The position numbers were made by a program, and so were the translations under genes. The notes beneath the pieces were generated by a model that made no database searches, had not been told where the DNA came from, and was given only the letters and a program-made list of their open reading frames with translations. A stretch of DNA of 64,000 nt from a bacterium (GTDB taxonomy: Bacteria > Electryoneota > Electryoneia > Electryoneales > Electryoneaceae), in contig CAXXKJ010000002.1 of the NCBI GenBank assembly GCA_963675295.2, forward strand, positions 3,328,001-3,392,000, written 5' to 3'. Positions 22,941-49,591 of this stretch are shown one piece after another. Numbering within the stretch: the first letter of the stretch is position 1; each line of letters starts with the position of its first letter.

Positions 22941-23729
22941 ATGAACGAAAACAACTATACACTCCAAGAGCTCAGCGAGCAAACCGGCATCGGGGCGCGA
23001 ACCATTCGCAGCTACATCCATGAGCACAATCTGCTGCGTCCTGCGCACGGTCGTGGCCCGAACGCGTACTACGACCAGGACCATCTGGATCGGCTGCAGG
23101 CGATCAAGATGTTGCGCGGAATGAAAAACATCAGTCTTTCGGCTATCGGAAGGCTGTTGATGCAATTCGATGTCGGCGAAGTGTCCCTCGAAGATTTGGA
23201 ACAGATGGTGAAGCAGCAGGGGCTTGATTGGTATCTAGTGTCTGATGCGGTAGATGATGCAGCACCCGCATCTTTCAAGGAGTCTGCGGCAACCACTTCT
23301 ACTCGGTTTCCAAGAATCGAACCTTCTTCCGCTTTGGATTTCATCCGCGAATACAAGCGACGACAACAGGAACCCGATCCTCAAGAGGAAAATTCTGCCC
23401 CGAAGGACATCGAGCCGTTTCCCATCGCTTCCCTCGCACGTCCACGGCTTTCCAAGCCCTATCCGAGCACAGGGTCGACTCACGAAGAATCGCGCCCCTG
23501 GACCGGGTTGAATCCACCGGAAAAGCTGCTGAGGATCCTGAAAAAAGAGGTGAGCACTGCACAACCTCGATCAAGACGAAGGGAGGAATGGGTCCAGTTC
23601 GAGATCACCCCTGACATACGGCTCCAGGTGCGGGGTGATTTTGACATTCGACAGCAGGCAATCTTTGCCCAGATCGCAGATGCGATGCGGGAGATTTTAC
23701 TCGGAGGAACTCATGATGAAGACGAATGA
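22941..23729 (+). CDS. MerR-family HTH regulator with long disordered linker
   Basis: YTLQELSEQTGIGARTIRSYI..LL.P..GRG..AYY...HLDRL..IK; C-terminal W...EITPDIRLQV. Confidence 0.82.
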   Translation: MNENNYTLQELSEQTGIGARTIRSYIHEHNLLRPAHGRGPNAYYDQDHLDRLQAIKMLRGMKNISLSAIGRLLMQFDVGEVSLEDLEQMVKQQGLDWYLVSDAVDDAAPASFKESAATTSTRFPRIEPSSALDFIREYKRRQQEPDPQEENSAPKDIEPFPIASLARPRLSKPYPSTGSTHEESRPWTGLNPPEKLLRILKKEVSTAQPRSRRREEWVQFEITPDIRLQVRGDFDIRQQAIFAQIADAMREILLGGTHDEDE

Positions 23730-31809: not shown

Positions 31810-34113
31810 CTAACTTGAACTATTAAGACGTTTGTAACTAATGGCAGAGTACACTATCCACCATAATCCTATTGACAAAAGAACTAATAATAATCTGTTT
31901 TCGTCTTCATATCCATAGTATTTAGCAACTGTGTCCGGAATCTCATTCACAATTCTCTCTGCTATGGCTGGGACAACTCCATCCTGGCTTTCAAGCTGAA
32001 GCGATCCTTCGAAACCCCAGCGGGAAAGCATTAAGCCTGAAATCAACTGAACGAATTCTGGAAGCTCTTTCAAACGAACAATCATTCCAGCGAGTACCAC
32101 CTGTGGAATAAGTACTACCGGTACAAGTGCAAGTGCAGAATTTTCTGAGGATGCAAGGGACGATATCATCAATCCAAGTGCAGTTCCTGTGAAGCAGACG
32201 GCAAACAGCATCAGGAAATGAGAAAACCATCCACCGGAGAAGTCAAGAACAGGAAAGACAAAAGCTAGGAGAACTCCTACCTGTAGAGCATCAATGACAG
32301 CAAGTACCACTAGTTTGGAGAGCAGGTAATTGCTGGTCAGAAGGAAAACACCCCGCTCTCGACGAAAAATTGCTCGTTCCTGTACAATCTCCCTGGCTGC
32401 GTTGGACGCTCCCAACCAGATCGCGGCAATGTTCAGCAGGAAGAGAGGTGTCGCAATGGGATAGGGTTGTTCTGCTGAAGAGTGTGTATCATAGAAAACA
32501 GCCGCAATAAGAGCGCCTATGATCGGCGCCTGGAGAAGAAGAATTAATGTTTGCAAACGATCGCGAAGCTTGATCTCTCCGTATCTCGCGATAAGATGTG
32601 TCAGCTGTGATAATCCGTGAACTGGTCTTGGCTCAGGATTTGTCGGCGATGTCCAGTTCTTACTGTGTTGACGTTTAGCCACGTAACTGTCGTGGAAACT
32701 GGATTGCTGATAAGTTTCTGCCCACTGGGTTGCGTTTCGTGTTTGCAACTTTGAAAAGATATCTTCCGGTGAATCAACTTCGAAGTATTCGGCAGCCTTG
32801 CTAGCAGGTCCAAAATACGCCAGATACCCGCTTTCAGTAAGCACAACTAACATGTCCAGCATTTCAAAATTACGCTTGGAGATGTTGTGCGTAGTCAGAA
32901 AAACCGTTTTTCCGCGGCGGGTCAATGACCTGAGCATAGTCATGACTTCCTTGTCACTCTGCGGATCGAGACCGCTGCAAGGTTCATCAAGAAAAAGCAC
33001 TGATGGCTGGGTGATCAATTCCTGGGCGCTGTTTACACGTTTTCGTTGACCACCCGAAATCCCTTTCTTTACAGGGCTACCTATCTCCGTGTCACGAATT
33101 GCCTCGAGTCCAAGGTCATGGATGACACGGTTTACTTCACGGCGACGCTCATCCACGTTCAGTTCCGGTAACCGCAAAGCGGCATTGTGGTTCAGGGAGG
33201 ATTCCACTGTTAACTCTGGATGGATGATATCATCCTGGGGCACATAACCGATGAATCCACGGAAACGGGCACTTTCCTTGTGTAGGTTGATTGCATTGAT
33301 GTGTACAGAACCGTAAGCTGGGCGAAGATAACCATTCATTGCCATCATCAAGGTGGTCTTTCCGGATCCGCTCGGTCCGATCAACCCAACAAACTCACCT
33401 GGATTCAACACCACTGAAATGTCATACAGAAGTGTCTTCTCGCCACCTCGCACTGGTACTTTCACGGACAGCTTGCTGACCTCGATGCGAGCTTCTCCTT
33501 CAGCAGCTTCCTCTTCAACAATCTCCTTTTGCCTCGGGAATAATACAACCGGGAGGCCTGCAATTAGGACCCGATTGTTTTCATCAATAATGCGTCGAGA
33601 TATACGTTCGCCATCTACAAACGTACCATTGCTACTTCCTAAGTCTTCCAGCCACCATGCGTTTTCCTTTTCGCCCTTGAGCTGGGCGTGATAGCGAGAT
33701 ACACGTGGGTGGGAAATGACAAAATCGTTGTCTGCGGATCGTCCTATAGTGAGTGTGGTTTTCTTTTCTTCTTTGATGATGAACGTCCAGGCACCAGTAA
33801 TTCCGGTGCGATGGCTAGATTCCAAGTCACTGTCAGCCACTTCTGCATCAAGTGGCTGGTTCACCCAATGTGACAGTAGATCGTTTGACCAATCAAGTTC
33901 AACGGATACTGAGATCCGAACAGGATCCCCGATACGTATCTGTTTTCTATTGATTCGTTCCTGCCCGACATATGTACCGTTGGAAGAGTTCAGATCTTCG
34001 AGCCACAAACCATCGAGAGTTTTCGTGATGCGGGCATGGTGGCTTGAAACGTGTGGATCTGTAAGTACCAGATCGTTATCTGAAGAACGTCCAATTGTGA
34101 ACACCTTCTGCAT
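31810..34113 (-). CDS. FHA-FHA-ABC(G-type) transporter, Rv1747-like
   Basis: Two FHA domains (IGRS.DND..VS..HA..LEDL.SSNGT.V); GPSGSGKT, ISGGQRKR, FLDEP; about six C-terminal TM helices. Confidence 0.92.
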   Translation of the reverse strand: MQKVFTIGRSSDNDLVLTDPHVSSHHARITKTLDGLWLEDLNSSNGTYVGQERINRKQIRIGDPVRISVSVELDWSNDLLSHWVNQPLDAEVADSDLESSHRTGITGAWTFIIKEEKKTTLTIGRSADNDFVISHPRVSRYHAQLKGEKENAWWLEDLGSSNGTFVDGERISRRIIDENNRVLIAGLPVVLFPRQKEIVEEEAAEGEARIEVSKLSVKVPVRGGEKTLLYDISVVLNPGEFVGLIGPSGSGKTTLMMAMNGYLRPAYGSVHINAINLHKESARFRGFIGYVPQDDIIHPELTVESSLNHNAALRLPELNVDERRREVNRVIHDLGLEAIRDTEIGSPVKKGISGGQRKRVNSAQELITQPSVLFLDEPCSGLDPQSDKEVMTMLRSLTRRGKTVFLTTHNISKRNFEMLDMLVVLTESGYLAYFGPASKAAEYFEVDSPEDIFSKLQTRNATQWAETYQQSSFHDSYVAKRQHSKNWTSPTNPEPRPVHGLSQLTHLIARYGEIKLRDRLQTLILLLQAPIIGALIAAVFYDTHSSAEQPYPIATPLFLLNIAAIWLGASNAAREIVQERAIFRRERGVFLLTSNYLLSKLVVLAVIDALQVGVLLAFVFPVLDFSGGWFSHFLMLFAVCFTGTALGLMISSLASSENSALALVPVVLIPQVVLAGMIVRLKELPEFVQLISGLMLSRWGFEGSLQLESQDGVVPAIAERIVNEIPDTVAKYYGYEDENRLLLVLLSIGLWWIVYSAISYKRLNSSS

Positions 34114-34121
34114 GCTGCTCC

Positions 34122-35006
34122 TCAGTAGCGTACGATTTCACCCCTGTCCTCGACGGGAACAGTAATCTTCAATTCACGGAACACAAGGTGTGCGGTACCC
34201 TCCACCCGCCACTCCCAGCCACGGTTTAGCACTCCGGATATGACGGACGAGCCCAGTTTCAACGAACCCACGCGCAGCTTCAGATCAGTATGGATTGGGC
34301 TTAGTGGGACAAGATGCAGCATTTCATGGGAGTGGATTTCACCAGTCATTGAATCGTTAATGAAAAGATCCAGATCCAGTGAATCGACGGTCAGGTCAGC
34401 GTCAAAAGGATTGATAAATCCAATCCTGACCGTCAATTCCTGTTCCTGCACTCCAAGTTTCCGTAGCCCGACCCGTTCTATTTCAATACCAGCTCGATCC
34501 ACTTGTTCACTGGCCCAGTCTCGTACCATCTGCTTAAACGGCAAGATCACGTCGAGCTCAAACTCTTGTTCAAGCTGGCCTATACCAGTACTCAACTCCA
34601 GCTTTACTGGTGCGGTGACGTTTACTGAATCCGCGCCAAGGACTGCCCGTTCCCAAACAGGCAGGTAGCTGTCGCGCAGAACCAGCGGAAGCGTTAAACG
34701 TATCGTATCGCGAGCTGCGATCTCTGTGTAACCAGTCCAGGTTCCTTTGCCGGCGAGTTCACCATCCAACAGCACGTCGTAATAAGCGCGTTCCAACGTA
34801 GCGCCAACACGATTGGGATTGTATAGAGCAATGCTGACCGCAAGAGAGGTTGAATCTTCGCCTATGGCATCTACTTCTACACGTTCGATTCCAGCGAACT
34901 GTGGTGGTTTGATCACACTGCAGGAGATCATTGTGACTGCCAATAAAACCCCTGCGAGGTTTTGAAACATTACTCCATTCTTAGTTGTCACCTCGCGCTG
35001 CTTCAT
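34122..35006 (-). CDS. LEA_2/WHy double-domain lipoprotein
   Basis: Lipobox-like MISC after a hydrophobic stretch; YNPN and INPF motifs in two beta-sandwich repeats. Confidence 0.7.
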   Translation of the reverse strand: MKQREVTTKNGVMFQNLAGVLLAVTMISCSVIKPPQFAGIERVEVDAIGEDSTSLAVSIALYNPNRVGATLERAYYDVLLDGELAGKGTWTGYTEIAARDTIRLTLPLVLRDSYLPVWERAVLGADSVNVTAPVKLELSTGIGQLEQEFELDVILPFKQMVRDWASEQVDRAGIEIERVGLRKLGVQEQELTVRIGFINPFDADLTVDSLDLDLFINDSMTGEIHSHEMLHLVPLSPIHTDLKLRVGSLKLGSSVISGVLNRGWEWRVEGTAHLVFRELKITVPVEDRGEIVRY

Positions 35007-35809
35007 TTGAGACGCTCCAGCGCTTCTTCGGCGGCAGCGTGCCGCTCACGGAAATAAGGATGGCTGGTCAGGTAGCTATCCATCCTTCGTAGAATGGCAT
35101 CAATCTCATCGGTGGGTTCGTCATAGATGCCTTGTTCTTTTTCTATGTCAATCATCTTGTCCATGAATCTCAGCATGCCTTCTGGATCATATCCGGCCTC
35201 GTGCATCAACCGCATGCCTACTGTATCCGCCTCAATTTCCTGGTCCCTGGAAAATGGGTACGTCACAACAGAGTACCCGATTTGCGTCAGCACACCTGCC
35301 TCGATACCCGCAATACGCTCTGCTGCTGCCGCATGCTGAATTCGATGCACACAATGTTTTTGGTCCACATGCGTCATTTCGTGCGCGATCACAGCTGCAA
35401 GTTCATCCTCGTCAAGTTCTAAATCTAACAACCCGGTGTATATCCAGACCCATCCACCGGCCGAAGCAAAAGCGTTGGTAGTGCTGTCCTCCTCAACCAG
35501 TTGAAATGAATAAGGTCGTAATGAACCTCGTTGCAGTACTGCTTCCAGGCGAGAACCAATTGATTGGATACGTCTCTCCCGCTTGCCATGCAGTAGGGTG
35601 AGGTCACTATTGATCTGTTCCGCTATCCGCTCGCCGAGCTCTTTCTCCTCGTCATCTGTCATATTTGTCGCAGGACGGAGCGTCGAGTCAGCAGCTTGGA
35701 CAATTGTCTTCGCAGTGTTAAACAGATCATCTAAGAGTTGGGCTTTTACTGGCTGCATGATCAACAGAATAAGTGCAGCGAAAAACACTACTAATCTAAA
35801 TATCCGCAC
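35003..35809 (-). CDS. Exported M48-family metallopeptidase
   Basis: Signal peptide; NAFA..GG.V.IYTGLL, AVIAHEMTH, FSRDQEIEAD, GYDP, SHP. Confidence 0.88.
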   Translation of the reverse strand: MRIFRLVVFFAALILLIMQPVKAQLLDDLFNTAKTIVQAADSTLRPATNMTDDEEKELGERIAEQINSDLTLLHGKRERRIQSIGSRLEAVLQRGSLRPYSFQLVEEDSTTNAFASAGGWVWIYTGLLDLELDEDELAAVIAHEMTHVDQKHCVHRIQHAAAAERIAGIEAGVLTQIGYSVVTYPFSRDQEIEADTVGMRLMHEAGYDPEGMLRFMDKMIDIEKEQGIYDEPTDEIDAILRRMDSYLTSHPYFRERHAAAEEALERLK

Positions 35810-35826
35810 TTCGACCTCCAGTTAAA

Positions 35827-37155
35827 CTATTGTTGTGAACAAAAACCGATTATTATACTTATAAAAGTAAATAGTAAAATTATTACAAATATTGCCGTTG
35901 CTCTACCATCAATATCCTTTTCCCTATCAACATTAAGATGGTCTCGTGCTGGAGGAAACTTCAAACTTACTGAGTGATTTAGATATTCTTTTGCTAATTC
36001 TCTTTCTTCTTGCGCCTCAAGTAGTCTTCCATACAAATAGGATGCCTGTTGTCCTCGTACTTTCAATAGCTTATGCACACCATTCATTATTTCCTTTTCA
36101 CTCTTATCTAGTAGCTGGCGACAAGGTTCTATAACATATTCTTTACTGAAATATTGTCTGTATTCTCCATTTTCCATTTCATCCACTAGTTCTCTTAGTC
36201 TTAACTGTACGGCATTTTCATATTCCTTTTGTTGACTCTCAAGAAGTGGTTCGGGCAGGTTACTACCTGAAAAACTGCTTTCATGAGCCGCTTCCTGGTA
36301 CGAAATAGTTTCTGATAAATCAGTGTCACTCAACAACTTGAAAAGTACGTCACAGTTTTGAATCCGTTGATCCAAATCGCGGGCTAGTGCATGATGGAGA
36401 ATCTCGACCAAAGATTCCGGGATATACGGATAAAACTCCCGTGGGTCAGGGATTGGATCTTCGAGGCAGGATTTCATGAACACAAACTCAGAGGTCTCGT
36501 CCTCATCGAAAGGCGCCCGTCCAGCGAGCATCACGTAAAGTGTCATACCGAGCGCGTAGATGTCAGCCCGATGATCGACCTGCTTACCGAGAATTTGTTC
36601 GGGTGCCATGTAAACTGGTGTGCCGAGGATGGTTCCTGTGCGCGTCAGCTTTGACTGGCCAGCTACCTTTGCGATCCCGAAATCGGTGACCTTAACAACG
36701 TTGTCCGTGGTGACGAGGACATTGGACGGCTTCAGATCACGATGCACCACGCCCTTGGCGTGTGCGTAATTGACTGCCTGCAGAAGCTGATTAAAAAGTC
36801 GGAGCGCTCGTTCGTGGGGGATCGGACCAACCTCTCGTCCGATCATTTGCTCGAGGTTACGACCCTCGACGTACTCCATAACCAACGCGATACCACCTTC
36901 AAACTGAATGAAATCGTGCACTTGGACGATATTCGGGTGGGTAAGTCTGGCCATGGTTTTGGCTTCACGAGCCATTCGTTCGCGCAACTCTGCAGCTCGC
37001 GCCGGCTGGTCAACCATAACTTTGAGGGCTGTCGGACGATCCAGCACCTCATGCTCAGCCAGATAGACCACACCCATTCCACCCCGTCCCAATTCTCGAA
37101 TTACTTTATAATTCGGAATGATCGGTAGCGGTATCTTGACTGCTTGTTTATCCAT
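35827..37155 (-). CDS. Ser/Thr protein kinase 6 (kinase + TPR/Sel1-like helix pair + C-terminal TM)
   Basis: GRGGMGVVY, HRDLKPSN, DFG, APE; hydrophobic C-terminus. Confidence 0.93.
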   Translation of the reverse strand: MDKQAVKIPLPIIPNYKVIRELGRGGMGVVYLAEHEVLDRPTALKVMVDQPARAAELRERMAREAKTMARLTHPNIVQVHDFIQFEGGIALVMEYVEGRNLEQMIGREVGPIPHERALRLFNQLLQAVNYAHAKGVVHRDLKPSNVLVTTDNVVKVTDFGIAKVAGQSKLTRTGTILGTPVYMAPEQILGKQVDHRADIYALGMTLYVMLAGRAPFDEDETSEFVFMKSCLEDPIPDPREFYPYIPESLVEILHHALARDLDQRIQNCDVLFKLLSDTDLSETISYQEAAHESSFSGSNLPEPLLESQQKEYENAVQLRLRELVDEMENGEYRQYFSKEYVIEPCRQLLDKSEKEIMNGVHKLLKVRGQQASYLYGRLLEAQEERELAKEYLNHSVSLKFPPARDHLNVDREKDIDGRATAIFVIILLFTFISIIIGFCSQQ

Positions 37156-37174
37156 CTATGTTACTCTGCATGAG

Positions 37175-38758
37175 TCAATCCAGTTTGGATTTACGTATAA
37201 GCCTAAAACCAACGTAAGGAAAATGAAAGCCTGGATAGAATTTTATTCTTGCCGCTGGCGAACATATTGCATGCCCATGCATATATGACCCTCCTCTCAC
37301 AGCCTTCACTCTGGATTTATCAGATCTAGCTTTCTTATCATCACCTTCTATCAATAGTTCATACCTCTTGTACCAATTATCACACCATTCCGCTACATTA
37401 CCTAACATATCATAAAGGCCCCATGGGTTAGGCTTTTTTGTACCAACATTATGTATTTTATTATCGCTGTTTGATTCATACCATGCATATAGATCCAATT
37501 TATCTTCTCTATCACCCCACCAATATCTTTGGTGATCTTTAGAAGCACGACATGCATACTCCCACTGAATTTCAGTTGGCAATGAATAGTAATATTCATC
37601 ATCTTCTAAATTAAGTTTATTTATAAAATCAATAATATCAAACCAAGTCACTTTTACAACAGGATAATCCTCATGATATATCTGTTCCTTATTTTTAGAA
37701 TTAAATGAATACCACATTTTATTAGTAACCAGTGTATTCATAATTTCAAATGCTGATACATAGGTTTCGTGACGAGGTTTTTCTGATTCTAAAGCATATT
37801 GATCTTCATCTGAGGAACCCATCATAAATTTTCCACCAGGTAGTGTAACGAAATTCATGTTCTCTAGTGGGCCCTCTTTCGTCACAAACCTATTATTACT
37901 GCTTACAGATATCAGATTATTCTTTTTTTCGGTTCTATCAATAATATTTACTAGATTATCACAGCTTTCGATCCTTGTTTCTATATTCCTATCTATTGTA
38001 GAGTAAATAATATCGACCATACGTTGAGGTATGTGCGGATAAAACTCTCTTGGATCGCGTATTGGATCCTCAAGACATGATTTCATTATCAGAAACTCGG
38101 ACGTTTCCTCATCATCGAATGGGGGTCTTCCAGCCAGCATCACATACAAAGTCATCCCCAACGCATAAATATCAGCCCGGTGATCGACCTCTTTCGCAAG
38201 AATCTGTTCTGGTGCCATGTAGATAGGCGAGCCAAGAACGGTTCCGGTTCGAGTCAGTTTTGAATCACCTACGGCTTTAGCAATACCGAAATCCGTCACC
38301 TTCACCCGGCCATCCTTGGCAACGAGGATGTTCGCCGGCTTAAGGTCCCTGTGTACTATGCCTTTCTCATGGGCGGCACCCACTGCACCAAGAATCTGCC
38401 TGAAAAGAGGCAACGCACGTTCATGGGGAATTGGGCCAACCTCTCGGCCAATCATCTCCTCCAGGGTACGGCCTTCCACGTATTCCATCACCAAGGCAAC
38501 ATTTTTACCATGATCGACTAGGTCAAAGATCCGAACGATGTTTTCGTGGTCGAGTGTCGCCATGACCCGTGCTTCGCGAAGAAAACGTTCGCGAATGGTC
38601 GCATCCCTCGCATACTGCTCGAGCATGAACTTGATGGCGACCTTACGCTGCAAAACCTCGTGTTCTGCCAGGTACACCACACCCATACCACCCCGACCGA
38701 TTTCCCTGATCAGGCGGTAATTCGGGATCACTGGGTACTGTCCATCAACCTCTATCAC
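37175..38758 (-). CDS. Ser/Thr protein kinase 5 (kinase + FGE-sulfatase/SUMF1 domain, no TM seen)
   Basis: Kinase motifs; FMMGS, LPTEIQWEYACRA, NPWGLYDMLGNVAEWC, RGGS, GFRL. Confidence 0.93.
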   Translation of the reverse strand: MIEVDGQYPVIPNYRLIREIGRGGMGVVYLAEHEVLQRKVAIKFMLEQYARDATIRERFLREARVMATLDHENIVRIFDLVDHGKNVALVMEYVEGRTLEEMIGREVGPIPHERALPLFRQILGAVGAAHEKGIVHRDLKPANILVAKDGRVKVTDFGIAKAVGDSKLTRTGTVLGSPIYMAPEQILAKEVDHRADIYALGMTLYVMLAGRPPFDDEETSEFLIMKSCLEDPIRDPREFYPHIPQRMVDIIYSTIDRNIETRIESCDNLVNIIDRTEKKNNLISVSSNNRFVTKEGPLENMNFVTLPGGKFMMGSSDEDQYALESEKPRHETYVSAFEIMNTLVTNKMWYSFNSKNKEQIYHEDYPVVKVTWFDIIDFINKLNLEDDEYYYSLPTEIQWEYACRASKDHQRYWWGDREDKLDLYAWYESNSDNKIHNVGTKKPNPWGLYDMLGNVAEWCDNWYKRYELLIEGDDKKARSDKSRVKAVRGGSYMHGHAICSPAARIKFYPGFHFPYVGFRLIRKSKLD

Positions 38759-38800
38759 TCTTACTCACTTTCAAACGGTTTCAGGAAACTCAAATACCGA

Positions 38801-38840
38801 GACAACGTTTGATGCTGAAGGATATAGGGCAAACGTTGTC
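38801..38840. other. 11-bp-stem hairpin at the end of kinase 4
   Basis: gacaacgtttg (38801-38811) / caaacgttgtc (38830-38840); no U-tract. Confidence 0.4.
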
Positions 38841-40179: not shown

Positions 40180-40253
40180 TTCAGATTCCTTTAGTATCCA
40201 TCCATCAAAGATTCAGCTGACCCGTCTTTGCTTACGTGGGTGAAAGCTATGGA

Positions 40254-43013
40254 TCAACGGTTCATTGGCACTCGAACGAGTCGAAATCCCAAGTAGAATT
40301 TCTTTTCTGAAGGATCCTCAAATCGACGACTCGCTGATCGACAAGAACTTGCCATAAATGCCCAATACCCACCGCGTGTAGATCGATATTTGCCACTGAT
40401 GGATCCACGTGGATTCGATACCGGGCTTGATTTGTAGTATTGATCGCTGTAGTAGTCCTGGCACCATTCTTGAACGTTTCCATGCATGTCGTACAACCCC
40501 CATTTGTTGGGAAGTTTGCTCGCTATTGCATGTGTAGTGCCTTGGCTATTGCTGTTATACCATGCATATGCAGGTAACCTGGAATAATCTAGGTCATCGC
40601 CCCAGCTGAAGCGGCTTCCATCTTCTCCAGCCCGGCAAGCATACTCCCATTCCGCCTCTGTCGGTAGGCGATAGGTATAGCTTGGATCATATTTGTTGAG
40701 TTCTTGAATGAATTCCTGAACATCATACCATGATACTTTTTCTACAGGCAGTCTATTTCCTTTGAAATGAGATGGATTATTCCTCATTAGAGTAGCCCAC
40801 GTTTCTTGTGTGACTTCTGTGGACATAATTTCAAATGATGAAACATGCACTTGATGTCGAGGATATTCATCGTATTTTGAATCCTTTTCATTGGCTAATG
40901 CTCCCATCGTGAAGTTTCCTTCGGGAATCTGGATAAAGGTTATTCCTAGCTTGGGCATACGTATTTTTGATGGAACACGAATTTCTTCTGGTAAATTTCG
41001 TTCTGTCTTATCCTCGTGTTTCGACGTGAGGTCCGCAGTTTTGGATTCGATCGAAACACGAGCAACCCGGAATCCCCATAGTACTGCGCTAAAGCTGGGA
41101 TAACTTGCGTATCGAACACTAGGTGAACATGCCTCTCTCGTACTTGTCCAATTCCCACCCCTTACAACTCTATATAGACCATTCAGAGGACCACTTGGAT
41201 CAATCTCATTACCTTTGGAATAATAATCTACGTCATACCAGTCATGGACCCACTCCCCAACATTTCCATGCATATCATATAGACCCCACGGATTAGAGGG
41301 TTTTATTGAAACAGCGTGTGTACCTATTGAATTACTATTATCGTAATACCATTCATAGTAGCTTAAATCATTTCCTGCTGCGTCGTTTCCCCACCAGAAT
41401 ATGGATTCTGCATTACCAGTTCTGCACGCATATTCCCATTCAGCCTCAGTAGGAAGACGATAATGCATCTGCGGATCACGAATATTGAGCCAGTCGATAA
41501 ATGCTATTACATCATTCCAGCTTACACAGACGACTGGGTATTGATCGGATTGAAGAAATCCTGGATGATTCCAATTCACTTCTGAATCGATTGCCCATTC
41601 TGTGCCATTCCATGCATAGGAACCAGAATTCTTCTCAGCGTCAGTATCATAACCAGTTGCATCAACAAACTCACCGAATTGGGATACTGTTACTTCTGTC
41701 GACATTAGCTCAAAGGCTGAGACTGTTACCTTATGACGCGGATACGAATCTCTTTTTAGCCCAGTCTCAATGGGCAATGCACCCATTATGTAGCTACCAG
41801 CTGGGATCTGAACGAAAGTCATACCAGCAATTGGTCCTCGCGAACTGGAATCAGTTTCTAGTTCAATTGATTTATCATTGTCTTCGTTTATTATTTCTCT
41901 AGAATTAATATCACTGCTTAGATTGCCATTATAGTTGTGTATAACCATAATTATAAAAAACACTCCAATTATTGCAATAATGAAAAGAAATGTCTTGACT
42001 CTTTTTTCCGATTCTTGCTGAGATTCGATTTCCTTTTTCCTTTGATTCTCTTCTAGCTGTCGAACTTTTTCTTGCCTGCGTTTTTCCTCTTCCTCATACT
42101 GTTTTTTCGAATGTTCCATCTGTTTCTCGTACTCTTCCTGTTCCCTCCTCTCTTCTTCAGCAGCCTCCATTTCCACTTGGTTGGTAAGACGATCTATTTC
42201 CTTAAGCTCATCTACACTTTTTAGAGATACTTTAAATGAAGCACAGTCTAGAAGACGTTTTTTCAAATCTCGCTCAAGGGCAGAGAATACTACTTTCACA
42301 ACTGGTTCAGGGATATATGGGTAATATTCTCGTGGGTCCGGGATTGTATCCTCAAGACATGCCTTCATAAATGCGAATTCAGAAGTTTCTTCTTCGTTAA
42401 ATGGTGTCCAGCCTGCCAGCATGACGTATAGCGTCATTCCCAGGGAATAGATGTCTGTCTGGTGATTAATCGGTTTCCCAAGAATCTGCTCAGGCGCCAT
42501 GTAGAGCGGTGTGCCTAACATTGTACCAGTTTTAGTCAGTTTCGACTGGCCTGCGGCTTTGGCGATACCAAAATCCGTAACCTTGACGATATTATCTTTC
42601 GATACCAGGATGTTTGATGGTTTCAGATCTCGATGAATCACTCCCTTGTCATGGGCAAAACCCACAGCAGCCAAGATTTGTTCGAATAGTGGCAGGGCTC
42701 TTTCATAGGGGATCGGTCCCATCTCGCGCCCGATCATCTGTTCCAGAGTCCGGCCTTCTACATATTCCATTACGAGAGCCGAACCACCTTCAAACTGGAT
42801 GTAATCGTGGATCTTTACGATGTTCGGATGGTCAAGCTGGGCAAGGGTTTGAGCCTCACGCTCCATTCGATAGCGTAAGTCAGTATTTCGAGTGTAGAGA
42901 TCGAGCATCACCTTTAGAGCATACCGACGTTTCAGCACCTCATGCTCTGCAAGGTAAACGATTCCCATTCCACCGCGACCTAACTCTTCTAAGATCTTGT
43001 AGCCAGGTACCAA
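40254..43013 (-). CDS. Ser/Thr protein kinase 3 (kinase + coiled coil + TM + two FGE-sulfatase domains)
   Basis: Kinase motifs; E/K/Q-rich coil; TM FLFIIAIIGVFFIIMVI; two RLPTEAEWEYACR / GLYDMHGNV.EW units. Confidence 0.93.
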   Translation of the reverse strand: MVPGYKILEELGRGGMGIVYLAEHEVLKRRYALKVMLDLYTRNTDLRYRMEREAQTLAQLDHPNIVKIHDYIQFEGGSALVMEYVEGRTLEQMIGREMGPIPYERALPLFEQILAAVGFAHDKGVIHRDLKPSNILVSKDNIVKVTDFGIAKAAGQSKLTKTGTMLGTPLYMAPEQILGKPINHQTDIYSLGMTLYVMLAGWTPFNEEETSEFAFMKACLEDTIPDPREYYPYIPEPVVKVVFSALERDLKKRLLDCASFKVSLKSVDELKEIDRLTNQVEMEAAEEERREQEEYEKQMEHSKKQYEEEEKRRQEKVRQLEENQRKKEIESQQESEKRVKTFLFIIAIIGVFFIIMVIHNYNGNLSSDINSREIINEDNDKSIELETDSSSRGPIAGMTFVQIPAGSYIMGALPIETGLKRDSYPRHKVTVSAFELMSTEVTVSQFGEFVDATGYDTDAEKNSGSYAWNGTEWAIDSEVNWNHPGFLQSDQYPVVCVSWNDVIAFIDWLNIRDPQMHYRLPTEAEWEYACRTGNAESIFWWGNDAAGNDLSYYEWYYDNSNSIGTHAVSIKPSNPWGLYDMHGNVGEWVHDWYDVDYYSKGNEIDPSGPLNGLYRVVRGGNWTSTREACSPSVRYASYPSFSAVLWGFRVARVSIESKTADLTSKHEDKTERNLPEEIRVPSKIRMPKLGITFIQIPEGNFTMGALANEKDSKYDEYPRHQVHVSSFEIMSTEVTQETWATLMRNNPSHFKGNRLPVEKVSWYDVQEFIQELNKYDPSYTYRLPTEAEWEYACRAGEDGSRFSWGDDLDYSRLPAYAWYNSNSQGTTHAIASKLPNKWGLYDMHGNVQEWCQDYYSDQYYKSSPVSNPRGSISGKYRSTRGGYWAFMASSCRSASRRFEDPSEKKFYLGFRLVRVPMNR

Positions 43014-43077
43014 GTATCCAGACCCTCCAATTGATTGGACAAATCTATACTCAAGTTATTTCAAAGTTGCACAAGCT

Positions 43078-44187
43078 CTACCATAGAGATAAGAAAAAAA
43101 CGGGGACAGCGAACATTGCAATAATCGATACTACTATTGCTATTGCTAAAACAAGAGAAGTAAAGCTTTCACCAGAAGATGATTTCTCAAGCACGACATC
43201 GTATTCCTCACTTAAACCATGTTTTACATCTGACTTATTTTCAATCGATCCATAAGACGTGGTAATATATTCATTATCTTTATTTTCATTATTTATATCA
43301 TTTTTATTTAATATACTAACATTATACTCTTCATTCATTATAATATTATCATTCTTTTGCGTCTGGTATATTGCATAAATTATATCTATACATTTATTAT
43401 ATCTTAGCTTTATCGATCTTTCAAGTGCTTTATTGATTGCATGAATAAGATGATCCGGGATGTATGGATAAAACGTCCTTGGATCGGGAATCTCATCTTC
43501 CATGCAGGATTTCAATAGTACAAACTCCGATGTTTCATCTTCATCAAACGGCGCGCGTCCAGCCAGCATCACGTACAACGTCATTCCCAAGGCATAAATG
43601 TCCGCTCTGTGGTCCACAGCTTTACCGAGGATCTGTTCCGGCGCCATGTAAATGGGTGTTCCGAGGACAGTCCCTGTGCGCGTAAGCTTGGATGCTCCCG
43701 CCGCCTTGGCAATTCCGAAGTCCGTCACCTTGATCCGATTGTCTTTCGTGACCAGCACATTCGCTGGCTTCAGGTCACGGTGAATGATGCCTTGCTCATG
43801 CGCATACCCAACCGCATCCAACAATTGACGAAACAGGGGCAATGCCCGTTCGTGCGGAATTGGACCAACCTCGCGCCCAATCATTTGCTCGAGGCTGCGA
43901 CCATCAACGTACTCCATCACGAACGCGACATCATCCTCACGCTCAATCAGGTCGTGCACCTTGACTATGTTGGGATGATCCATTGTTGCCATCATGCGGG
44001 CTTCACGCAGAAATCTCTCGCGTACCGCTTCATCGCGGGCATGCTGTTCAAGAATAACTTTGATGGCTACTTGCCGATGTAGTCCCTTGTGATTTCCAAG
44101 GTAGACCACACCCATCCCGCCACGACCAATTTCTCGTTCGACCGTGTAGTTGGCAAACTCAGGTAGTCTTGTCGATGCAGGACTCAT
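43078..44187 (-). CDS. Ser/Thr protein kinase 2 (kinase + Asn-rich linker + C-terminal TM)
   Basis: GRGGMGVVY, HRDLKPAN, DFG, APE; overlaps the PP2C stop. Confidence 0.93.
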   Translation of the reverse strand: MSPASTRLPEFANYTVEREIGRGGMGVVYLGNHKGLHRQVAIKVILEQHARDEAVRERFLREARMMATMDHPNIVKVHDLIEREDDVAFVMEYVDGRSLEQMIGREVGPIPHERALPLFRQLLDAVGYAHEQGIIHRDLKPANVLVTKDNRIKVTDFGIAKAAGASKLTRTGTVLGTPIYMAPEQILGKAVDHRADIYALGMTLYVMLAGRAPFDEDETSEFVLLKSCMEDEIPDPRTFYPYIPDHLIHAINKALERSIKLRYNKCIDIIYAIYQTQKNDNIIMNEEYNVSILNKNDINNENKDNEYITTSYGSIENKSDVKHGLSEEYDVVLEKSSSGESFTSLVLAIAIVVSIIAMFAVPVFFLSLW

Positions 44188-45323
44188 TCTTCAGACACGC
44201 TCTCTCTTCCGGGCTCAGATTCGGAGATTAAAGATGAACGACCAGAGTCTACTATGGTAACGCTCACTGCAATTAATGGTGGATGGAACATGGTATCTTT
44301 AGGAAATGCTTGGTCAATACTCTGTCGCGGATCGATTTCTTCAACAGTCAGGTCATGGGTGGGTTGCGAAAAAAAGGATCTGAGGAATTTCCCGGGAACT
44401 GTGTTAAGTAAAAGTAATGCTGCGACTACTGCCGCCAGGAGAATGATCACGGTACCGCCGTATAAAGCCACCCTGGGCAAGTGTTTGACTGGGGGTACAT
44501 CTATTTGTCGCGTTTGACGGTCTGCTCCATCCGATCGGAGCAAAGGTTTTCGTGGCTTCGGACCAATATGGCAGTCAACAATTTGCACGGTGGCGTTGTC
44601 GTCTCCACTTCGCTCATTCGCAAGTTTTACCAATCTTTCAGCCAGCACCTGAGGTGTTTGATCGATAGATTGCTGTTCCATATCGATTGCAGGAATTGGA
44701 CCAGAGATCCCATCCGTACACAGGATGAAGCGGTCGCCTTTGCAAACATCTACAGTTTCAATCTCGGGTTCAATTTCCTCGCGTACACCCAACGCCCGGG
44801 TAATCACATTTTTCTGTGGATGGTCTTCTGCTTCCTTCTCTGTGATCAATCCCCGGCGTTGCATCTCGCTAACCATGGAATGATCCTGGGTCAGCTGTTC
44901 GATATGATCCAATCGAATTCGATATAGCCGGCTGTCGCCAATGTGTACACGCCAGGCGGTGGGCTTTTTTGTTGTACTTACGAGGAGCAGGACACACGTT
45001 GTGCCCATTCCTTCCAGTTCGGAGTTCTGATCAATTTCCTGTCGGATAGCGCGGTTCGCACTTGCAAGTGCCCGCTTCAGTACTTTGGGGGCGTTCCTAT
45101 CGACAGATTCCGTGACAACTTTGGCAATTGTCTCCACGGCCAGTCGGCTGGCACGTTTACCACCAACATGCCCACCCATGCCATCACATACGATGAAAAG
45201 TGAACCCAATTCCGTTTCAAAAAAGCCATAGTAGTCTTCATTTTCGCTACGAACGGTCCCCACATCGGTAAAATTCCCGAACTCAATCGGCGACCGTTTA
45301 CCGAACGTTAGCAGCGGGATCAT
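44184..45323 (-). CDS. PP2C/PrpC-family Ser/Thr phosphatase with TM helix
   Basis: DVG.VRSENED, VCDGMGGH.GG, HIGDSRLY, LCTDG, DDNATV; TM TVIILLAAVVAALLLL. Confidence 0.93.
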   Translation of the reverse strand: MIPLLTFGKRSPIEFGNFTDVGTVRSENEDYYGFFETELGSLFIVCDGMGGHVGGKRASRLAVETIAKVVTESVDRNAPKVLKRALASANRAIRQEIDQNSELEGMGTTCVLLLVSTTKKPTAWRVHIGDSRLYRIRLDHIEQLTQDHSMVSEMQRRGLITEKEAEDHPQKNVITRALGVREEIEPEIETVDVCKGDRFILCTDGISGPIPAIDMEQQSIDQTPQVLAERLVKLANERSGDDNATVQIVDCHIGPKPRKPLLRSDGADRQTRQIDVPPVKHLPRVALYGGTVIILLAAVVAALLLLNTVPGKFLRSFFSQPTHDLTVEEIDPRQSIDQAFPKDTMFHPPLIAVSVTIVDSGRSSLISESEPGRESVSEE

Positions 45324-46924
45324 TCTTGCACCCCTTGGAACTGAAGTTCACAGCGTCCCATCTGAATGCGGTCACCATTGTTCAGCAGGACGGTATGAAT
45401 TTGTTCTCCGTTCACTCTTGTGCCGTTTGTAGAATCGTTGTCTGTCAGTTGGAACTGCCCACCGACAAATCGCAGTGTAGCGTGATGTCCAGAAACCGTC
45501 GGTTCCTCAAGCACAATGCGATTGTCGTCCGCAGCCCCGATCGTCACTTCCGCAGCGGTCACATCAAACTCAGATCCCGCCTGCGAGCCGCTGCTGATGA
45601 GAAAGCTTCCACTTTTATATACCTGTAAGGCCGGTTGGCCAATGATCGTTTTCCGTGACATCGATTGCGCGGGAGCCTGACCTGCAACCGAAGTGTGAGA
45701 TGGGATTCCCGTGTCGCGGCTTGATCCTGCTTCAACTTGATCGGACTCGGGAACAGGTTCAGCTTTCAACTTGGCAGCTTCCGCTTCCTGCTGTTTTCGT
45801 TTTTCTTCCAGCCGATGCTCCTCTTCCTGGCGTCGGCGCTCTTCTTCAAGCAATCTTTGTTCTTCTTCCCGGCGTTTCGCCCGATTCCGGGAGCTGACTA
45901 GAGCAATGACTACAACGACAATAACCACAACAGCACCGCCAGCGGCGACAGGAATGAAGGGGAATTCAGAATCGCTCCTTCCTCCGTGTCCGTCATCCGC
46001 TGTCACACGCGTTGAAACTGCCATGGATAGTACTGTCTGACCTGCAAAATTGCCCCGACTGGCAGCAATTGTGTAGCTGTGGGACCGGCCATCTGCCAAC
46101 TCGGACGGCGGATTGAAGGATAGCAAATATTGGCTCTTCAGGTAATCCAGCGAAAGTACAAACTGTTCGCTAAGATCTTCGGATTCACGCGCGCGGTGAT
46201 ATTGTCCATTTGTACGGTCACTCATCGCCTCCAGATTCCGCAAGAATCGTTCATCGATGTTTGTAAATCCTACCGTAAAAATCGGAACATCATTTTCGTT
46301 CGCTTTTTCAATGCAATTATCCAGGGAGTAAGCATTCGCCATACTTTCGTTCTTTCCATCTGAAAGCACCAGAACTAGCCGTCGATCAGGAATTCCTGTG
46401 CTTTCATCAAGGAAGGTGAGACTTCGGTAAACTCCATAAAACAACTCTGTGGTCGCACCTCTGGCCTGGATGGTCCCCGTTCGCTCTTTCAAATACGAAC
46501 GGTTCATGGAAAAGTCGGATACGATTTCCACCTCATCGCCAAAGGTGATAATGGCTACCCGGTCCTGGGGACGTAGCTGATCGATGTATTCATTCACTGC
46601 TTCTTTAGCATCTGCCATTGGATCTCCGGACATGGACAGAGATGCATCAAGGCAAAGGACAACCGCTACACCCTGGTCGGACTCATAGAAGGACTGCACG
46701 CGCGGTGAAATCGATGAATACCCTTCCGGGATCACATTGAAATGTGTCGAATCCAATCCCAGCACTCCCTCTCGGTTCGCATCGAGGACCGTTACCGCAG
46801 CAATCACAGCCGAGGTATGGGTTGAATCGATCTCGTCCAGTCTGACAGTCCAAGGCTCGACCGCGTTGGCAGTAGTAGCTAGGAACAGGATCATCATGAT
46901 CATCGCAAGATGATTGCTTTTCAT
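45320..46924 (-). CDS. Signal peptide + vWA + TM + coiled coil + FHA protein
   Basis: LDASLSMSG MIDAS and LSDG; Val-rich TM; C-terminal FHA IGA..DN..VSGHHA..D.DSTNGT.VNG. Confidence 0.88.
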   Translation of the reverse strand: MKSNHLAMIMMILFLATTANAVEPWTVRLDEIDSTHTSAVIAAVTVLDANREGVLGLDSTHFNVIPEGYSSISPRVQSFYESDQGVAVVLCLDASLSMSGDPMADAKEAVNEYIDQLRPQDRVAIITFGDEVEIVSDFSMNRSYLKERTGTIQARGATTELFYGVYRSLTFLDESTGIPDRRLVLVLSDGKNESMANAYSLDNCIEKANENDVPIFTVGFTNIDERFLRNLEAMSDRTNGQYHRARESEDLSEQFVLSLDYLKSQYLLSFNPPSELADGRSHSYTIAASRGNFAGQTVLSMAVSTRVTADDGHGGRSDSEFPFIPVAAGGAVVVIVVVVIALVSSRNRAKRREEEQRLLEEERRRQEEEHRLEEKRKQQEAEAAKLKAEPVPESDQVEAGSSRDTGIPSHTSVAGQAPAQSMSRKTIIGQPALQVYKSGSFLISSGSQAGSEFDVTAAEVTIGAADDNRIVLEEPTVSGHHATLRFVGGQFQLTDNDSTNGTRVNGEQIHTVLLNNGDRIQMGRCELQFQGVQE

Positions 46925-47550
46925 GACGCCTCCACTGTGTCGATAAGACGTAATTTCAAGTGTGTCCGGCCGATCAAGATGTTGTCGCCGTCTTGCAACA
47001 CACGTGGGACATCTCCTACGTCTTCACCATTTACAAACGTACCGTTTGTCGAGAAGTTGTCACGCAGTTTTAAGACACCTCCTCGGTACAACAATTCAGC
47101 ATGAAAGCCCGAGACCATACCGTCTGGCAGCTGGATTTCCACGTCATTACCACTGCCGATACGAGTTTTCCCAACATGTAGCCGGTAGTCTTGGCCATTC
47201 GGATTCCAGTCAAAGCTCACCAACCAGCCGATCAACTTTCCTTGAACGCCCGCCTTCGCAGCACCGCGTTGTTCCTCGGAAGCACCTGCAGGTTCTGGTT
47301 CGAGAATAACCGTCTTTCTGGCACCACCACTACCACCAGGTCTTGCTGTCTTCTCGACCGGCGCATCGAGCACGGTCTTTCGCTGCCCCGTTGGTTTATC
47401 GGCTTGTGGCCCCTTTGACTTGTCGGGTGTGTGCTTCACCGGTTTATCAAGAACCGTTTTGGCGGACGGATCGGTTTTAGGACAAAACGGGCATTCATCA
47501 AGATCTGCACGGTATCGATGTCCGTTCGGGCAAACTTTTGTTGCTTCCAT
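46921..47550 (-). CDS. Zn-ribbon + Thr-repeat linker + FHA protein
   Basis: CPNGH..Y....CPFCP; repeated KTV(L/I); C-terminal FHA IGS..VSGFHA..STNGTFVNG. Confidence 0.88.
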   Translation of the reverse strand: MEATKVCPNGHRYRADLDECPFCPKTDPSAKTVLDKPVKHTPDKSKGPQADKPTGQRKTVLDAPVEKTARPGGSGGARKTVILEPEPAGASEEQRGAAKAGVQGKLIGWLVSFDWNPNGQDYRLHVGKTRIGSGNDVEIQLPDGMVSGFHAELLYRGGVLKLRDNFSTNGTFVNGEDVGDVPRVLQDGDNILIGRTHLKLRLIDTVEAS

Positions 47551-47568
47551 CAGCCAGCCACCCTTGCT

Positions 47569-48966
47569 TTAAGTTTTAAACTCTTTACCGTAGGTGTTAC
47601 GTACACGCTTTGATTTCTTGAAATATAACCACCAAATAGTAAAATATATGATTGCATGAAAAATTGATTTTATAGTCTCAAACTGATATTCATGAAAAAT
47701 ATTACTTGATCCTGATGTTATTATTAAAGTAAGTAAATCACTACTGACCCATAATATTAAATTTCCCTTTAAAAAGGTACGTGCAGTAGATCTGCCAGTT
47801 TGTTTTCCCCTCCAAACAATAATTCCTGTAAAGAATCCCCAAATATTCAATATTAACGTGGATAATATATCTATTGACATAACGATATCTAATAGAGGGT
47901 CGATGTCAAACAAATCACCGTAGATAGAAATTGACCATAACGTTGCAATTGGAGTTAAAATTGTTAATGAAACACAAAAGAGTAGCAACCAACCACCCAC
48001 ACCGCGAGGATTGTTATCTTCTTCAATTGATGAATTTTCGGTAGTATCGTTAGTTAAGGAATCCACTTCAGGTGGTCTATTCATTTGACTCGAATCGTGA
48101 TGATCTGATTCATATCGAGTAGATGGACGCACGAAATCAACCTGACCGTTTAGAAAACTCTTGAATTGACTAGAAGAGGCAAACCGTAGTCCCGGATCCT
48201 TTTCCGTTGCCAATCGAATCGCATCGACTACTTGGTCGGGAATGTGAGGGTAATACTCTCTTGGATCAGGTAGATCGTGCTTCACGATCCAATCCATGAT
48301 CTTGTATTCGCTGGAAGTTGTCGCGTCGAACGGCACGCGACCGGTAACCATCTCGTATAGGGTTATCCCGAGCGAATAAATGTCGCTCCGTTCTGTCGCC
48401 TCAATTCCTTTCACCTGCTCCGGCGACATGTACCAAAGTGTTCCAAGCTTGGTCCCGGTCCGGGTCAGCCCTTGCTGCCCGATGATTTTTGCGATGCCCA
48501 GGTCGGTAACCTTTACAACGTCACTAGGTGTGACAATGGCATTGGAAGGCTTTATGTCTCGGTGAATTATACCGCGGGAATGTAGGTAATCGAAGGCGTC
48601 AAGAAGCTGGAAAAAGATCGGCAGGGCACGTTCGGATACAATCGGTCCAACTTCGCGACCGATAATTTGATCGAGGCTGCGCCCCTCGATGAATTCCATC
48701 ACCAGCGCAAGACGATCTTCCGTTTCGATGTAATCAAGGAGTGTGACGATGTTGGGATGACTGAGTGAGGCTTGTAGTCGGGCTTCGCGGGAAAAGCGTT
48801 CCCGCAATTGAGGATCTCGACTGTGATGTTCGTGGAGGATTTTTACTGCGACGGTCCGATCAAGCCGAGTGTCAGTCGCTCTCCAGACAACTCCCATCCC
48901 GCCTTCGCCGATGATCTCATGTAACTCATAGTGCAGCAAGCGCACCGCAACCTCCCTGGCATCCAC
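47569..48966 (-). CDS. Ser/Thr protein kinase 1 (kinase + DUF2569-like 4-TM domain)
   Basis: GEGGMGVVW, HRDIKPSN, DLG, SPE; GVGGWLLLF...W.LYF.KSKRVRNT. Confidence 0.9.
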   Translation of the reverse strand: MDAREVAVRLLHYELHEIIGEGGMGVVWRATDTRLDRTVAVKILHEHHSRDPQLRERFSREARLQASLSHPNIVTLLDYIETEDRLALVMEFIEGRSLDQIIGREVGPIVSERALPIFFQLLDAFDYLHSRGIIHRDIKPSNAIVTPSDVVKVTDLGIAKIIGQQGLTRTGTKLGTLWYMSPEQVKGIEATERSDIYSLGITLYEMVTGRVPFDATTSSEYKIMDWIVKHDLPDPREYYPHIPDQVVDAIRLATEKDPGLRFASSSQFKSFLNGQVDFVRPSTRYESDHHDSSQMNRPPEVDSLTNDTTENSSIEEDNNPRGVGGWLLLFCVSLTILTPIATLWSISIYGDLFDIDPLLDIVMSIDILSTLILNIWGFFTGIIVWRGKQTGRSTARTFLKGNLILWVSSDLLTLIITSGSSNIFHEYQFETIKSIFHAIIYFTIWWLYFKKSKRVRNTYGKEFKT

Positions 48967-49546: not shown

Positions 49547-49591
49547 ACTTTTAAGCCCAAGGCCGTGGGTTCGAGTCCCACCATCCTCACA
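49543..49591 (+). other. 3' fragment of a tRNA-Lys(TTT)-like gene: island att duplication
   Basis: Anticodon arm tggga-cttttaa-gccca (one mismatch), T-arm gtggg-ttcgagt-cccac, acceptor 3' strand catcctca; no 5' half upstream; GC rises to the right. Confidence 0.8.

Follow-up and report, generated by a model that had tools for sequence, protein, structure and literature searches.

What would a bacterium gain from a compact run of genes that combines six Ser/Thr kinases with FHA proteins, a phosphatase and an ABC exporter, and does such a run belong to a type VI secretion system (T6SS), to immunity or to the physiology of the cell envelope? The question is raised by a 64,000-nucleotide stretch of an Electryoneota genome (G000; GenBank assembly GCA_963675295.2, contig CAXXKJ010000002.1, positions 3,328,001 to 3,392,000), hereafter the window, in which twelve such genes lie between positions 31810 and 48966. 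We read this cassette as a horizontally acquired, self-contained, multi-input Ser/Thr phospho-relay gating an exporter that resembles Rv1747 of Mycobacterium tuberculosis, with a periplasmic arm, an interpretation to which we give slightly better than even credence. Its role is probably to sense trouble at the cell envelope.

Organization of the cassette

The twelve genes are co-directional open reading frames (ORFs) on the minus strand, running from window position 48966 to 31810 with junctions that are either 4-bp overlaps or gaps of no more than 80 bp, and the twelve-gene signalling block described in the original prediction, which had been made from the sequence alone, is thus present as such. 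They encode six Hanks-type kinases (K1 to K6), a zinc-ribbon FHA protein (the adaptor), a vWA-transmembrane-FHA protein (the hub), a PP2C phosphatase with a transmembrane segment, an M48 peptidase, a LEA_2 lipoprotein and an FHA-FHA exporter of the ABCG type. Gene starts were taken as the first ATG, GTG or TTG of each ORF and are therefore predicted, domains were assigned with Pfam and transmembrane segments by a hydropathy scan. Pfam recovered every domain that had been named beforehand and added DUF2569 on K1, two FGE-sulfatase domains following the transmembrane helix of K3 and a single one on K5. The K1 gene is separated from the adaptor gene by 18 bp; the adaptor and hub, hub and PP2C, and PP2C and K2 genes overlap by 4 bp each; the gaps from K2 through the M48 gene measure, in operon order, 64, 74, 80, 19 and 17 bp; and a 4-bp overlap of the M48 and LEA_2 genes is followed by an 8-bp gap to the ABC gene. 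This arrangement is not due to chance, as the same gene set, in order, recurs in other genomes (see below). A gene for an McrB homolog lies only 59 bp past the ABC gene on the same strand, so that the transcription unit could exceed twelve genes; a simple terminator scan performed at background level, with 16 terminators found versus 15.8 expected.

The phospho-signalling circuit of the block is self-contained. Across the whole genome there are seven matches to Pkinase, four to FHA and one to PP2C_2, and the block accounts for six, four and one of these, respectively, the PP2C gene being the sole PP2C_2 match of the genome.

Kinases, readers and output

The six Pkinase matches of the block have E values of 2.5e-53 to 3.1e-59, and the catalytic Lys, the HRD and D[FL]G motifs (DLG in K1, DFG in the others) and a TRTGT activation loop are kept in all six proteins, each of which looks catalytically competent on these motifs. 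What distinguishes the kinases is what follows the catalytic core. K1 (47569..48966, minus strand as for all genes of the block; 465 aa; Pkinase E 3e-55) continues into a multi-pass DUF2569 membrane domain (E 4.3e-11). K2 (43078..44187; 369 aa; E 3.1e-59), K4 (38839..40179; 446 aa; E 2.3e-55) and K6 (35827..37155; 442 aa; E 3.8e-57) are tail-anchored according to the hydropathy scan, with transmembrane segments at residues 345-363, 426-444 and 421-439, and in K4 and K6 the C-terminal anchor is preceded by a cytosolic helical tail. K3 (40254..43013; 919 aa; E 2.5e-53) is joined through a coiled coil and a transmembrane segment (341-359) to two FGE-sulfatase/C-type-lectin-like domains that are predicted to be periplasmic (FGE-sulfatase E 4.2e-105 over two stretches), and K5 (37175..38758; 527 aa; E 9e-58) is a soluble kinase with a C-terminal FGE-sulfatase-like domain (E 7.6e-45) and no transmembrane segment.

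Phylogenetic reconstruction placed K1 as sister to a kinase-DUF975 protein of another member of the phylum, G009 (62% identity; ultrafast bootstrap/SH-aLRT support 98/93), and K2 to K6 in a single clade (99/98) separate from every kinase of the other loci. Core identity within this clade is 62-73%, and K4 and K6, with 73% identical cores, have tails that are only 19% identical; the other members carry unrelated tails. One clade of similar cores and dissimilar tails indicates that the five genes are products of local duplication whose tails were later exchanged or diverged.

The best matches of the K3 FGE domains among sequences of the Protein Data Bank (PDB) were a variable protein of T. denticola, FGE/SUMF1, PorK/GldK (E 6.8e-23) and PvdO; a TagR chain was not among the PDB sequence matches listed. 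For the K4 tail, an Atlas search returned a weak, sub-threshold TPR-like lead (score 0.83). We also considered a link of the K3 FGE domains to a diversity-generating retroelement (DGR), given their likeness to the Treponema DGR variable protein, and rejected it, as blastn of the 13 kb around the reverse-transcriptase gene against the FGE-coding DNA gave no template-repeat-like match. That gene, the only reverse-transcriptase match of the genome, is a 321-aa frame located ~123 kb away (G000:C2:3515028-3515576), with a repeat of 105-bp period nearby (L218:8203-8444).

The adaptor (46921..47550; 209 aa; FHA E 1.4e-16) consists of an N-terminal zinc ribbon (CxxxH...CxxC), a disordered linker and an FHA domain, and its linker contains two [RK]KTV[IL] motifs, at residues 57 and 78, as does that of G009. 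The hub (45320..46924; 534 aa; VWA E 1.6e-16, FHA E 2.5e-18) has a signal peptide, a vWA domain predicted to be periplasmic, a transmembrane segment (326-344), a coiled region and a cytosolic FHA domain. Its vWA metal site is kept, with a D-x-S-x-S motif and with D93, S95 and D189 invariant, and RKT426IIG is invariant in all seven sequences compared. We suggest that [RK][RK]T[VIM][IL], found at hub T426 and in the adaptor copies, is a conserved candidate phospho-acceptor motif. An initial word-based search made the hub appear near-unique, with seven full-length relatives, an impression overturned by an exhaustive profile search that returned 2254 matches at E <= 1e-30; the vWA-transmembrane-FHA layout, in proteins of at most 700 aa, is found in 117 of the best 150 of these matches. 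On these profile matches the hub represents a sizeable family, for which no published description turned up. The phosphatase (44184..45323; 379 aa; PP2C_2 E 1.3e-17) ends in a transmembrane segment (291-309) and a short outside tail.

The exporter (31810..34113; 767 aa) is an FHA-FHA half-transporter of the ABCG/ABC-2 type, in which two FHA domains (E 5e-39, two stretches) precede a nucleotide-binding domain (ABC_tran E 2.9e-30) and a membrane domain (ABC2_membrane E 5.9e-22). The closest solved relatives of the nucleotide-binding domain are the ABCG/PDR transporters Cdr1, Pdr5 and ABCG2. Residues G124, R125, S139, R140, H142, N162 and G163 of the second FHA domain are invariant in 12 of 12 relatives, and so are Walker A, the signature residues and D376-E377 of Walker B. 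FHA-FHA-ABC exporters as such are very common (7460 of 8000 clusters scored), and a plasmid search returned only distant FHA-ABC relatives (~30-34%), in Streptomyces, cyanobacteria and mycobacteria.

Two further proteins are predicted to act outside the cytoplasm. The M48 zinc peptidase (35003..35809; 268 aa; Peptidase_M48 E 2.2e-28) is predicted to be secreted by virtue of a signal-like segment at residues 3-21, and its HExxH motif and distal Glu ligand (H143, E144, H147 and E191) are invariant in 6/6 orthologs. The LEA_2 protein (34122..35006; 294 aa; LEA_2 E 5.7e-12) is a putative lipoprotein, a status supported by the invariance of Cys29 in all four orthologs, with two LEA_2/WHy-like beta-sandwich domains. 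Its AlphaFold2 model comprises two beta-sandwiches (mean pLDDT 72.4), and a fold search with the model gave a single-domain match to the LEA14-like protein Af_0446 (PDB 3BUT, TMt 0.64) and otherwise generic tandem beta-sandwiches, such as transglutaminase C-terminal domains, at low TM-score.

Related operons in other genomes

Within the phylum, an exporter ortholog together with a hub was found in only 3 of 79 species genomes, namely G000 itself, G009 and G016, and none of the three same-genus genomes has an orthologous operon. At least two operons were recovered from a sample of 301 Bacteroidota genomes (G337 and G161), the exporter-based count of 3/301 being a lower bound because three candidates per genome were scored; the LEA_2 profile matched 15 of the 301 genomes, with M48 and ABC neighbours only in G337. 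The gene order is kinase-DUF975, FHA, hub, PP2C, kinase-FGE, M48, LEA_2 in G009, where the ABC gene stands at the start of another contig; FHA, hub, PP2C, kinase-Sel1, kinase, M48, LEA_2, ZorA-like, ZorB-like, ZnR-DUF2569, FHA-FHA-ABC, kinase-Sel1 in G016; and FHA, x-TM-FHA (TM, transmembrane), PP2C, FHA, kinase, M48, LEA_2, FHA-FHA-ABC in G337. In two loci of an Acidobacteriota type, L015 and the metagenome contig L095, the order is kinase, FHAx3-ABC, M48, hub, PP2C, FHA. A set of hub, small FHA protein, PP2C and one or more Hanks kinases is present in the window, G009, G016, L093, L015, L095, L023, G337 and G161; an M48 peptidase and an FHA-tagged ABC-2 exporter accompany it in the window, G016, G337, G161, L015 and L095; and LEA_2 is present only in the window, G009, G016 and G337.

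Hub, small FHA protein, PP2C, M48 and exporter are the constants across these loci, and the variables are the number of kinases (1-6) and their tails, which across the family are DUF2569, DUF975, FGE, Sel1, MORN or none. A hub has FGE-tailed kinases beside it in the window and G009, and probably also in L093. The six-kinase panel is special to the window copy, the other loci having one to three kinases. Fusions tie parts of the cassette together: G161 encodes a 359-aa M48-FHA protein (L191:11020-12099, G161:C2), and DUF2569, fused to K1 in the window, is free-standing beside the exporter gene in G016. These loci constitute a thinly spread operon family in at least three phyla that we found described in no paper; among the papers listed by our literature search, none treats FHA, ABC transporter, M48, PP2C and threonine kinase as one operon, and none makes a relevant link of Zorya with FHA and kinase.

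Neighbourhoods of the homologues were examined for linkage to defence genes, and five loci, compared without a random-locus control and too few for a statistic, had readable context. In addition to the window, whose island is described below, two of them support the linkage that had been proposed. The G016 operon embeds, between LEA_2 and DUF2569/exporter, genes for a ZorA2-like protein (521 aa, E 1.4e-27) and a full-length ZorB2-like protein (241 aa, E 1e-70) (L012:4368-6624, G016:C10), with no ZorE-type effector on that contig, and G161 has DUF4297 (E 2.2e-161) and HerA (E 5.7e-147) genes 6.6 kb upstream of its operon. The remaining two do not: the ~10-24 kb flanks of G337 and L095 contain no PADLOC match, except a weak ZorB3 match in L095 that spans an OmpA domain only, and their neighbours are ordinary (amidohydrolase, type IX secretion system (T9SS) cargo, ECF sigma factor and FG-GAP protein). 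The defence link of the cassette is accordingly mixed.

Directly upstream of the G009 ortholog (L011:10077-19985, G009:C168) are six co-directional genes encoding proteins of 277, 663, 219, 478, 370 and 1298 aa, which gave no significant Pfam or PADLOC match, two of them having weak sub-threshold hits; this cluster could be a further system that awaits characterisation.

A tRNA-Lys integrative island

In the window genome the cassette is mobile. A 43-bp direct repeat of the 3' end of tRNA-Lys(TTT), present in exactly two copies in the genome, marks the right border of an integrative island (attR, 49548..49590, plus strand), and its second copy is located inside the tRNA-Lys gene, 1.3 kb left of the window (G000:C2:3326678-3326720), adjoined by a tyrosine integrase. 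The island so bounded spans 50.9 kb, comprising window positions 1-49590 and G000:C2:3326647-3328000 (L194:18647-19928), and the phospho-signalling block is its last cargo. The same-genus genome G001 has an empty site, in which the left flank (SecDF, purA and tRNA-Lys; 90-91% identity) directly joins the right flank (80%). GC content is ~42-51% in the block versus ~60% in the right flank. The claim that the block sits on a defence island was borne out, its neighbours including McrBC, DrmD-like and DpdF-like helicases, a type I restriction-modification (RM) system and DUF4238; DUF3987 and a MerR and vWA pair complete the cargo. The window copy is the only member of the family shown to lie inside a bounded integrative defence island.

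Comparison with known systems

Several known systems share parts with the cassette, among them Rv1747/PknF of M. tuberculosis. As in Rv1747, a single chain unites two N-terminal FHA domains, a nucleotide-binding domain and an ABC-2/ABCG-type membrane domain, and Hanks kinases are encoded in the exporter operon, here six of them, co-directional and separated by gaps of at most 80 bp. This FHA-FHA, ABC_tran and ABC2_membrane layout, which is not LolCDE-like, supports the earlier assignment of the transporter to the Rv1747 class and not to that of TagST. The likeness is one of domain layout, the one sequence tie seen being the presence of an Rv1747 FHA chain (6cah) among the matches of the hub FHA domain. 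By analogy, positive control by threonine phosphorylation may be presumed here as well: the operon kinase PknF is reported to modulate the transporter positively, with phospho-sites located in a non-structured linker (PMC3138270; PMC8339232). Unlike the mycobacterial pair, the cassette has six kinases and not one, and adds PP2C, the zinc-ribbon FHA adaptor, the hub, M48 and LEA_2; moreover, it is carried on a mobile island, in a diderm host related to Bacteroidota.

The threonine-phosphorylation pathway of the P. aeruginosa H1-T6SS (TagQRST, PpkA, PppA and Fha1) offers the same domain types, that is, a membrane kinase, a PP2C, an FHA reader, FGE-like and vWA domains, a lipoprotein and an ABC transporter. 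In this pathway PpkA has a periplasmic vWA domain, TagST is LolCDE-like and TagR is a free, FGE-like periplasmic protein that binds the lipoprotein TagQ. The original prediction had recognised the domain kit of this pathway without a T6SS; the domain types are indeed the same, but the likeness goes no deeper. Here the vWA domain occurs only in the 534-aa FHA hub and is absent from all six kinases, the FGE domains form part of kinase chains, periplasmic in K3 and cytosolic in K5, the ABCG-like exporter has FHA domains of its own, and the lipoprotein is a LEA_2 tandem sandwich. The T6SS itself is absent as far as tested, since the profiles PF05943, PF05638 and PF05591 (VipB/TssC, Hcp and VipA/TssB) had no match in the genome (92.8% complete, 2 contigs) and were positive in E. 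coli controls. The H1-T6SS pathway is reported to sense membrane damage, and TagR to contact PpkA (PMC13713981), a contact echoed by the FGE-tailed kinases beside the hub.

Among defence and conflict systems, TerY-P combines a TerY-like vWA protein, a PP2C and a Ser/Thr kinase, and is described as a stand-alone antiphage system that is also an accessory of CoCoNuT McrBC systems (PMC10542128). The cassette similarly co-encodes vWA, PP2C and Hanks kinase and is associated with a defence locus, here beside an McrBC pair. In contrast to TerY-P, its vWA domain has a signal peptide and a transmembrane segment, is fused to FHA and matches no PADLOC model (the coverage of TerY-P by PADLOC-DB v2 was not checked), none of its kinases ends in an OB-fold or zinc ribbon, the tails being instead DUF2569, FGE, helical or a bare anchor, and it contains in addition FHA readers, M48, LEA_2 and an exporter. 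None of the twelve proteins matches ZorA or ZorB of Zorya, and only the G016 ortholog embeds ZorA2/ZorB2-like genes. The Esr threat-sensing pathway, known from oral Actinomycetota, and the MoxR-vWA conflict systems (Kaur et al. 2020) also combine surface or envelope sensing through vWA with kinase/phosphatase pairs and a variable FHA output, and sensor diversification is expected for conflict systems (PMC13622651; PMC7159879). Unlike these, the cassette has no MoxR ATPase, beta-propeller filament or Esx system, and its output is an FHA-tagged exporter, not transcription or Esx secretion. The exporter and kinases share the Rv1747/PknF architecture, and the block lacks tested defining features of the T6SS pathway, TerY-P and Zorya.

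Proposed mechanism and alternative explanations

From the gene set, motifs, predicted topology, conservation, fusions, mobility and self-containment described above we infer who phosphorylates whom, FHA-dependent gating, the cargo and the nature of the trigger. The six kinases would be parallel inputs, alike in their cores and differing in their tails: the multi-pass DUF2569 domain of K1, the tandem FGE/lectin-like domains of K3 in the periplasm, the FGE-like domain of K5 in the cytosol, the helical, tail-anchored forms of K4 and K6, and the bare tail anchor of K2. Once stimulated, the kinases would act on threonines within the adaptor and hub linkers, and may also phosphorylate one another. 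The two canonical FHA domains of the exporter would read these phospho-threonines, whereby export would be recruited and switched on, following the precedent of Rv1747/PknF, and the membrane-bound PP2C would reset the relay. A periplasmic arm formed by the hub vWA domain, M48 and LEA_2 may either sense the state of the envelope or process exported material, and the trigger would most likely be damage to the envelope or the presence there of an invader. The function first suggested for the block, surveillance of the envelope with the phospho-gated exporter as its output, remains the most economical reading.

Several observations weigh against it. The adaptor and hub FHA domains carry GS or GA for the canonical phosphate-binding GR arginine both here (GS in the adaptor) and in G009, and owing to this replacement may read phospho-threonine weakly or not at all; the canonical GR is kept in the adaptor and hub FHA domains of G016 and the Bacteroidota copies. 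The first FHA domain of the exporter varies among relatives at the position of the phosphate-binding arginine. The Mailhella locus L023 has no ABC or M48 gene within its contig, so the exporter is not universal in hub operons. Finally, the mixed neighbourhoods do not settle conflict versus physiology.

A rival explanation, which we consider somewhat unlikely, is that the cassette is itself an anti-phage or anti-invader immune system, in which the kinase tails are invader sensors and the exporter, together with the M48/LEA_2 arm, brings about a protective response in the form of surface remodelling, blocked entry or growth arrest. It would account for the cassette being cargo of a tRNA-Lys island otherwise full of defence genes, for its patchiness in the phylum and genus and the empty site in G001, for the Zorya-like genes within the G016 ortholog and DUF4297 and HerA near that of G161, and for the lineage-specific five-fold expansion of kinases with swapped tails; TerY-P provides a precedent for vWA, PP2C and kinase as a stand-alone antiphage system (PMC10542128, citing Gao et al. 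2020). However, the neighbours are ordinary in G337 and L095, no PADLOC model is matched by the hub, adaptor, M48 or LEA_2 protein, and the matches of the kinases to PD-T4-6, mad6 and Stk2 are generic kinase-domain matches. There is no nuclease, NADase, pore or other usual effector among the cassette proteins, and a search of viral contigs found no hub relative. A bolder form of this idea, which we hold to be unlikely, is a new class of envelope-based immunity in which the kinases, a germline-encoded set of receptors expanded and given new tails in the manner of immune receptor families, would detect contact with a phage, predator or epibiont, FHA docking would engage the exporter and the periplasmic protease to remodel or seal the envelope, and ZorAB motors would be an optional extra input.

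The opposite view, that the cassette serves ordinary physiology by regulating envelope biogenesis or adaptation to stress (for example the export of lipids or glycolipids in cells exposed to desiccation, osmotic or nutrient stress) and rides the island by chance, seems to us quite improbable. It fits the non-defence neighbourhoods of G337 and L095, the ECF sigma factor adjoining the Acidobacteriota-type loci and the presence of LEA_2, a Pfam family named for late-embryogenesis-abundant proteins, which are associated with water stress; moreover, Rv1747/PknF and the actinobacterial FhaA-PstP-PknB clusters serve growth and envelope physiology, not immunity. Against this, the cassette is accessory and mobile in the window genome and was not found in 76 of the 79 phylum genomes searched, and both the turnover of kinase tails and the embedded ZorAB pair would be unusual for a housekeeping pathway. 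The idea of a T6SS-type threonine-phosphorylation pathway, either orphaned from its secretion system or now serving a different one, for example the T9SS next to the island, is already largely refuted and strikes us as barely credible. It could draw on the domain types held in common with PpkA, PppA, Fha1 and TagQRST, on genes for T9SS cargo and a PorV-like protein just right of attR, and on the resemblance in sequence of the K3 FGE domains to PorK/GldK. The T9SS genes, though, lie outside the island in core DNA of 60% GC and are present beside the empty site of G001, which makes their adjacency an accident of insertion; TssB, TssC and Hcp are missing from the genome, examination of six homologous loci revealed no T6SS genes, no kinase carries the vWA domain, and the membrane part of the ABC protein is of the ABC2_membrane type.

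Other cargo of the island

Elsewhere on the island, a type I RM system (hsdR, hsdM and hsdS; window 3906-10452) has a gene with T5orf172 and cold-shock domains (6318-7220) inserted between hsdR and hsdM. A DpdF-like helicase (13146-17952) is apparently split by an IS30-like transposase gene (14808-15800) into a DEAD half with a DUF559 nuclease-like region (15901-17952) and a Helicase_C half (13146-14804). Within 18105-22776, the gene for a DrmD-like SNF2 helicase (E 7.5e-250) overlaps that for a 540-aa protein matching no known family, and no further DISARM components were recognised near it. Within 22920-25764, a MerR-family regulator is followed by a second vWA protein of 709 aa on the plus strand, and the only defence-model match of the pair is a weak mad1 helix-turn-helix (HTH) one; assignment to MADS was rejected, as the matches to mad1, mad3, mad6 and mad8 represent generic HTH, ATPase and kinase domains. 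The McrB homolog downstream of the exporter (28487-31750; 1087 aa) has, before its AAA_5 region, an N-terminal extension of ~540 aa that belongs to no known family and may be a modified-base reader module. CoCoNuT was considered for this locus and rejected, the N-terminal region of McrB not being coiled-coil by eye and the Pfam annotation including no CnuH helicase or CnuE.

Implications

Bacterial Hanks kinases seldom come with a defined, closed set of partners. In this genome nearly all of the Ser/Thr signalling parts travel together on one mobile element, and the FHA-tagged exporter is their obvious output, which makes the cassette a clean model for how phospho-threonine docking gates a transporter, for how the sensor tails of kinases diversify, and for whether such relays serve in immunity or not. 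The ZorAB pair of G016 and the M48-FHA fusion of G161 are concrete, testable ties between envelope sensing and phospho-signalling, and should the defence reading prove true, an exporter-based output would join the known anti-phage repertoire.

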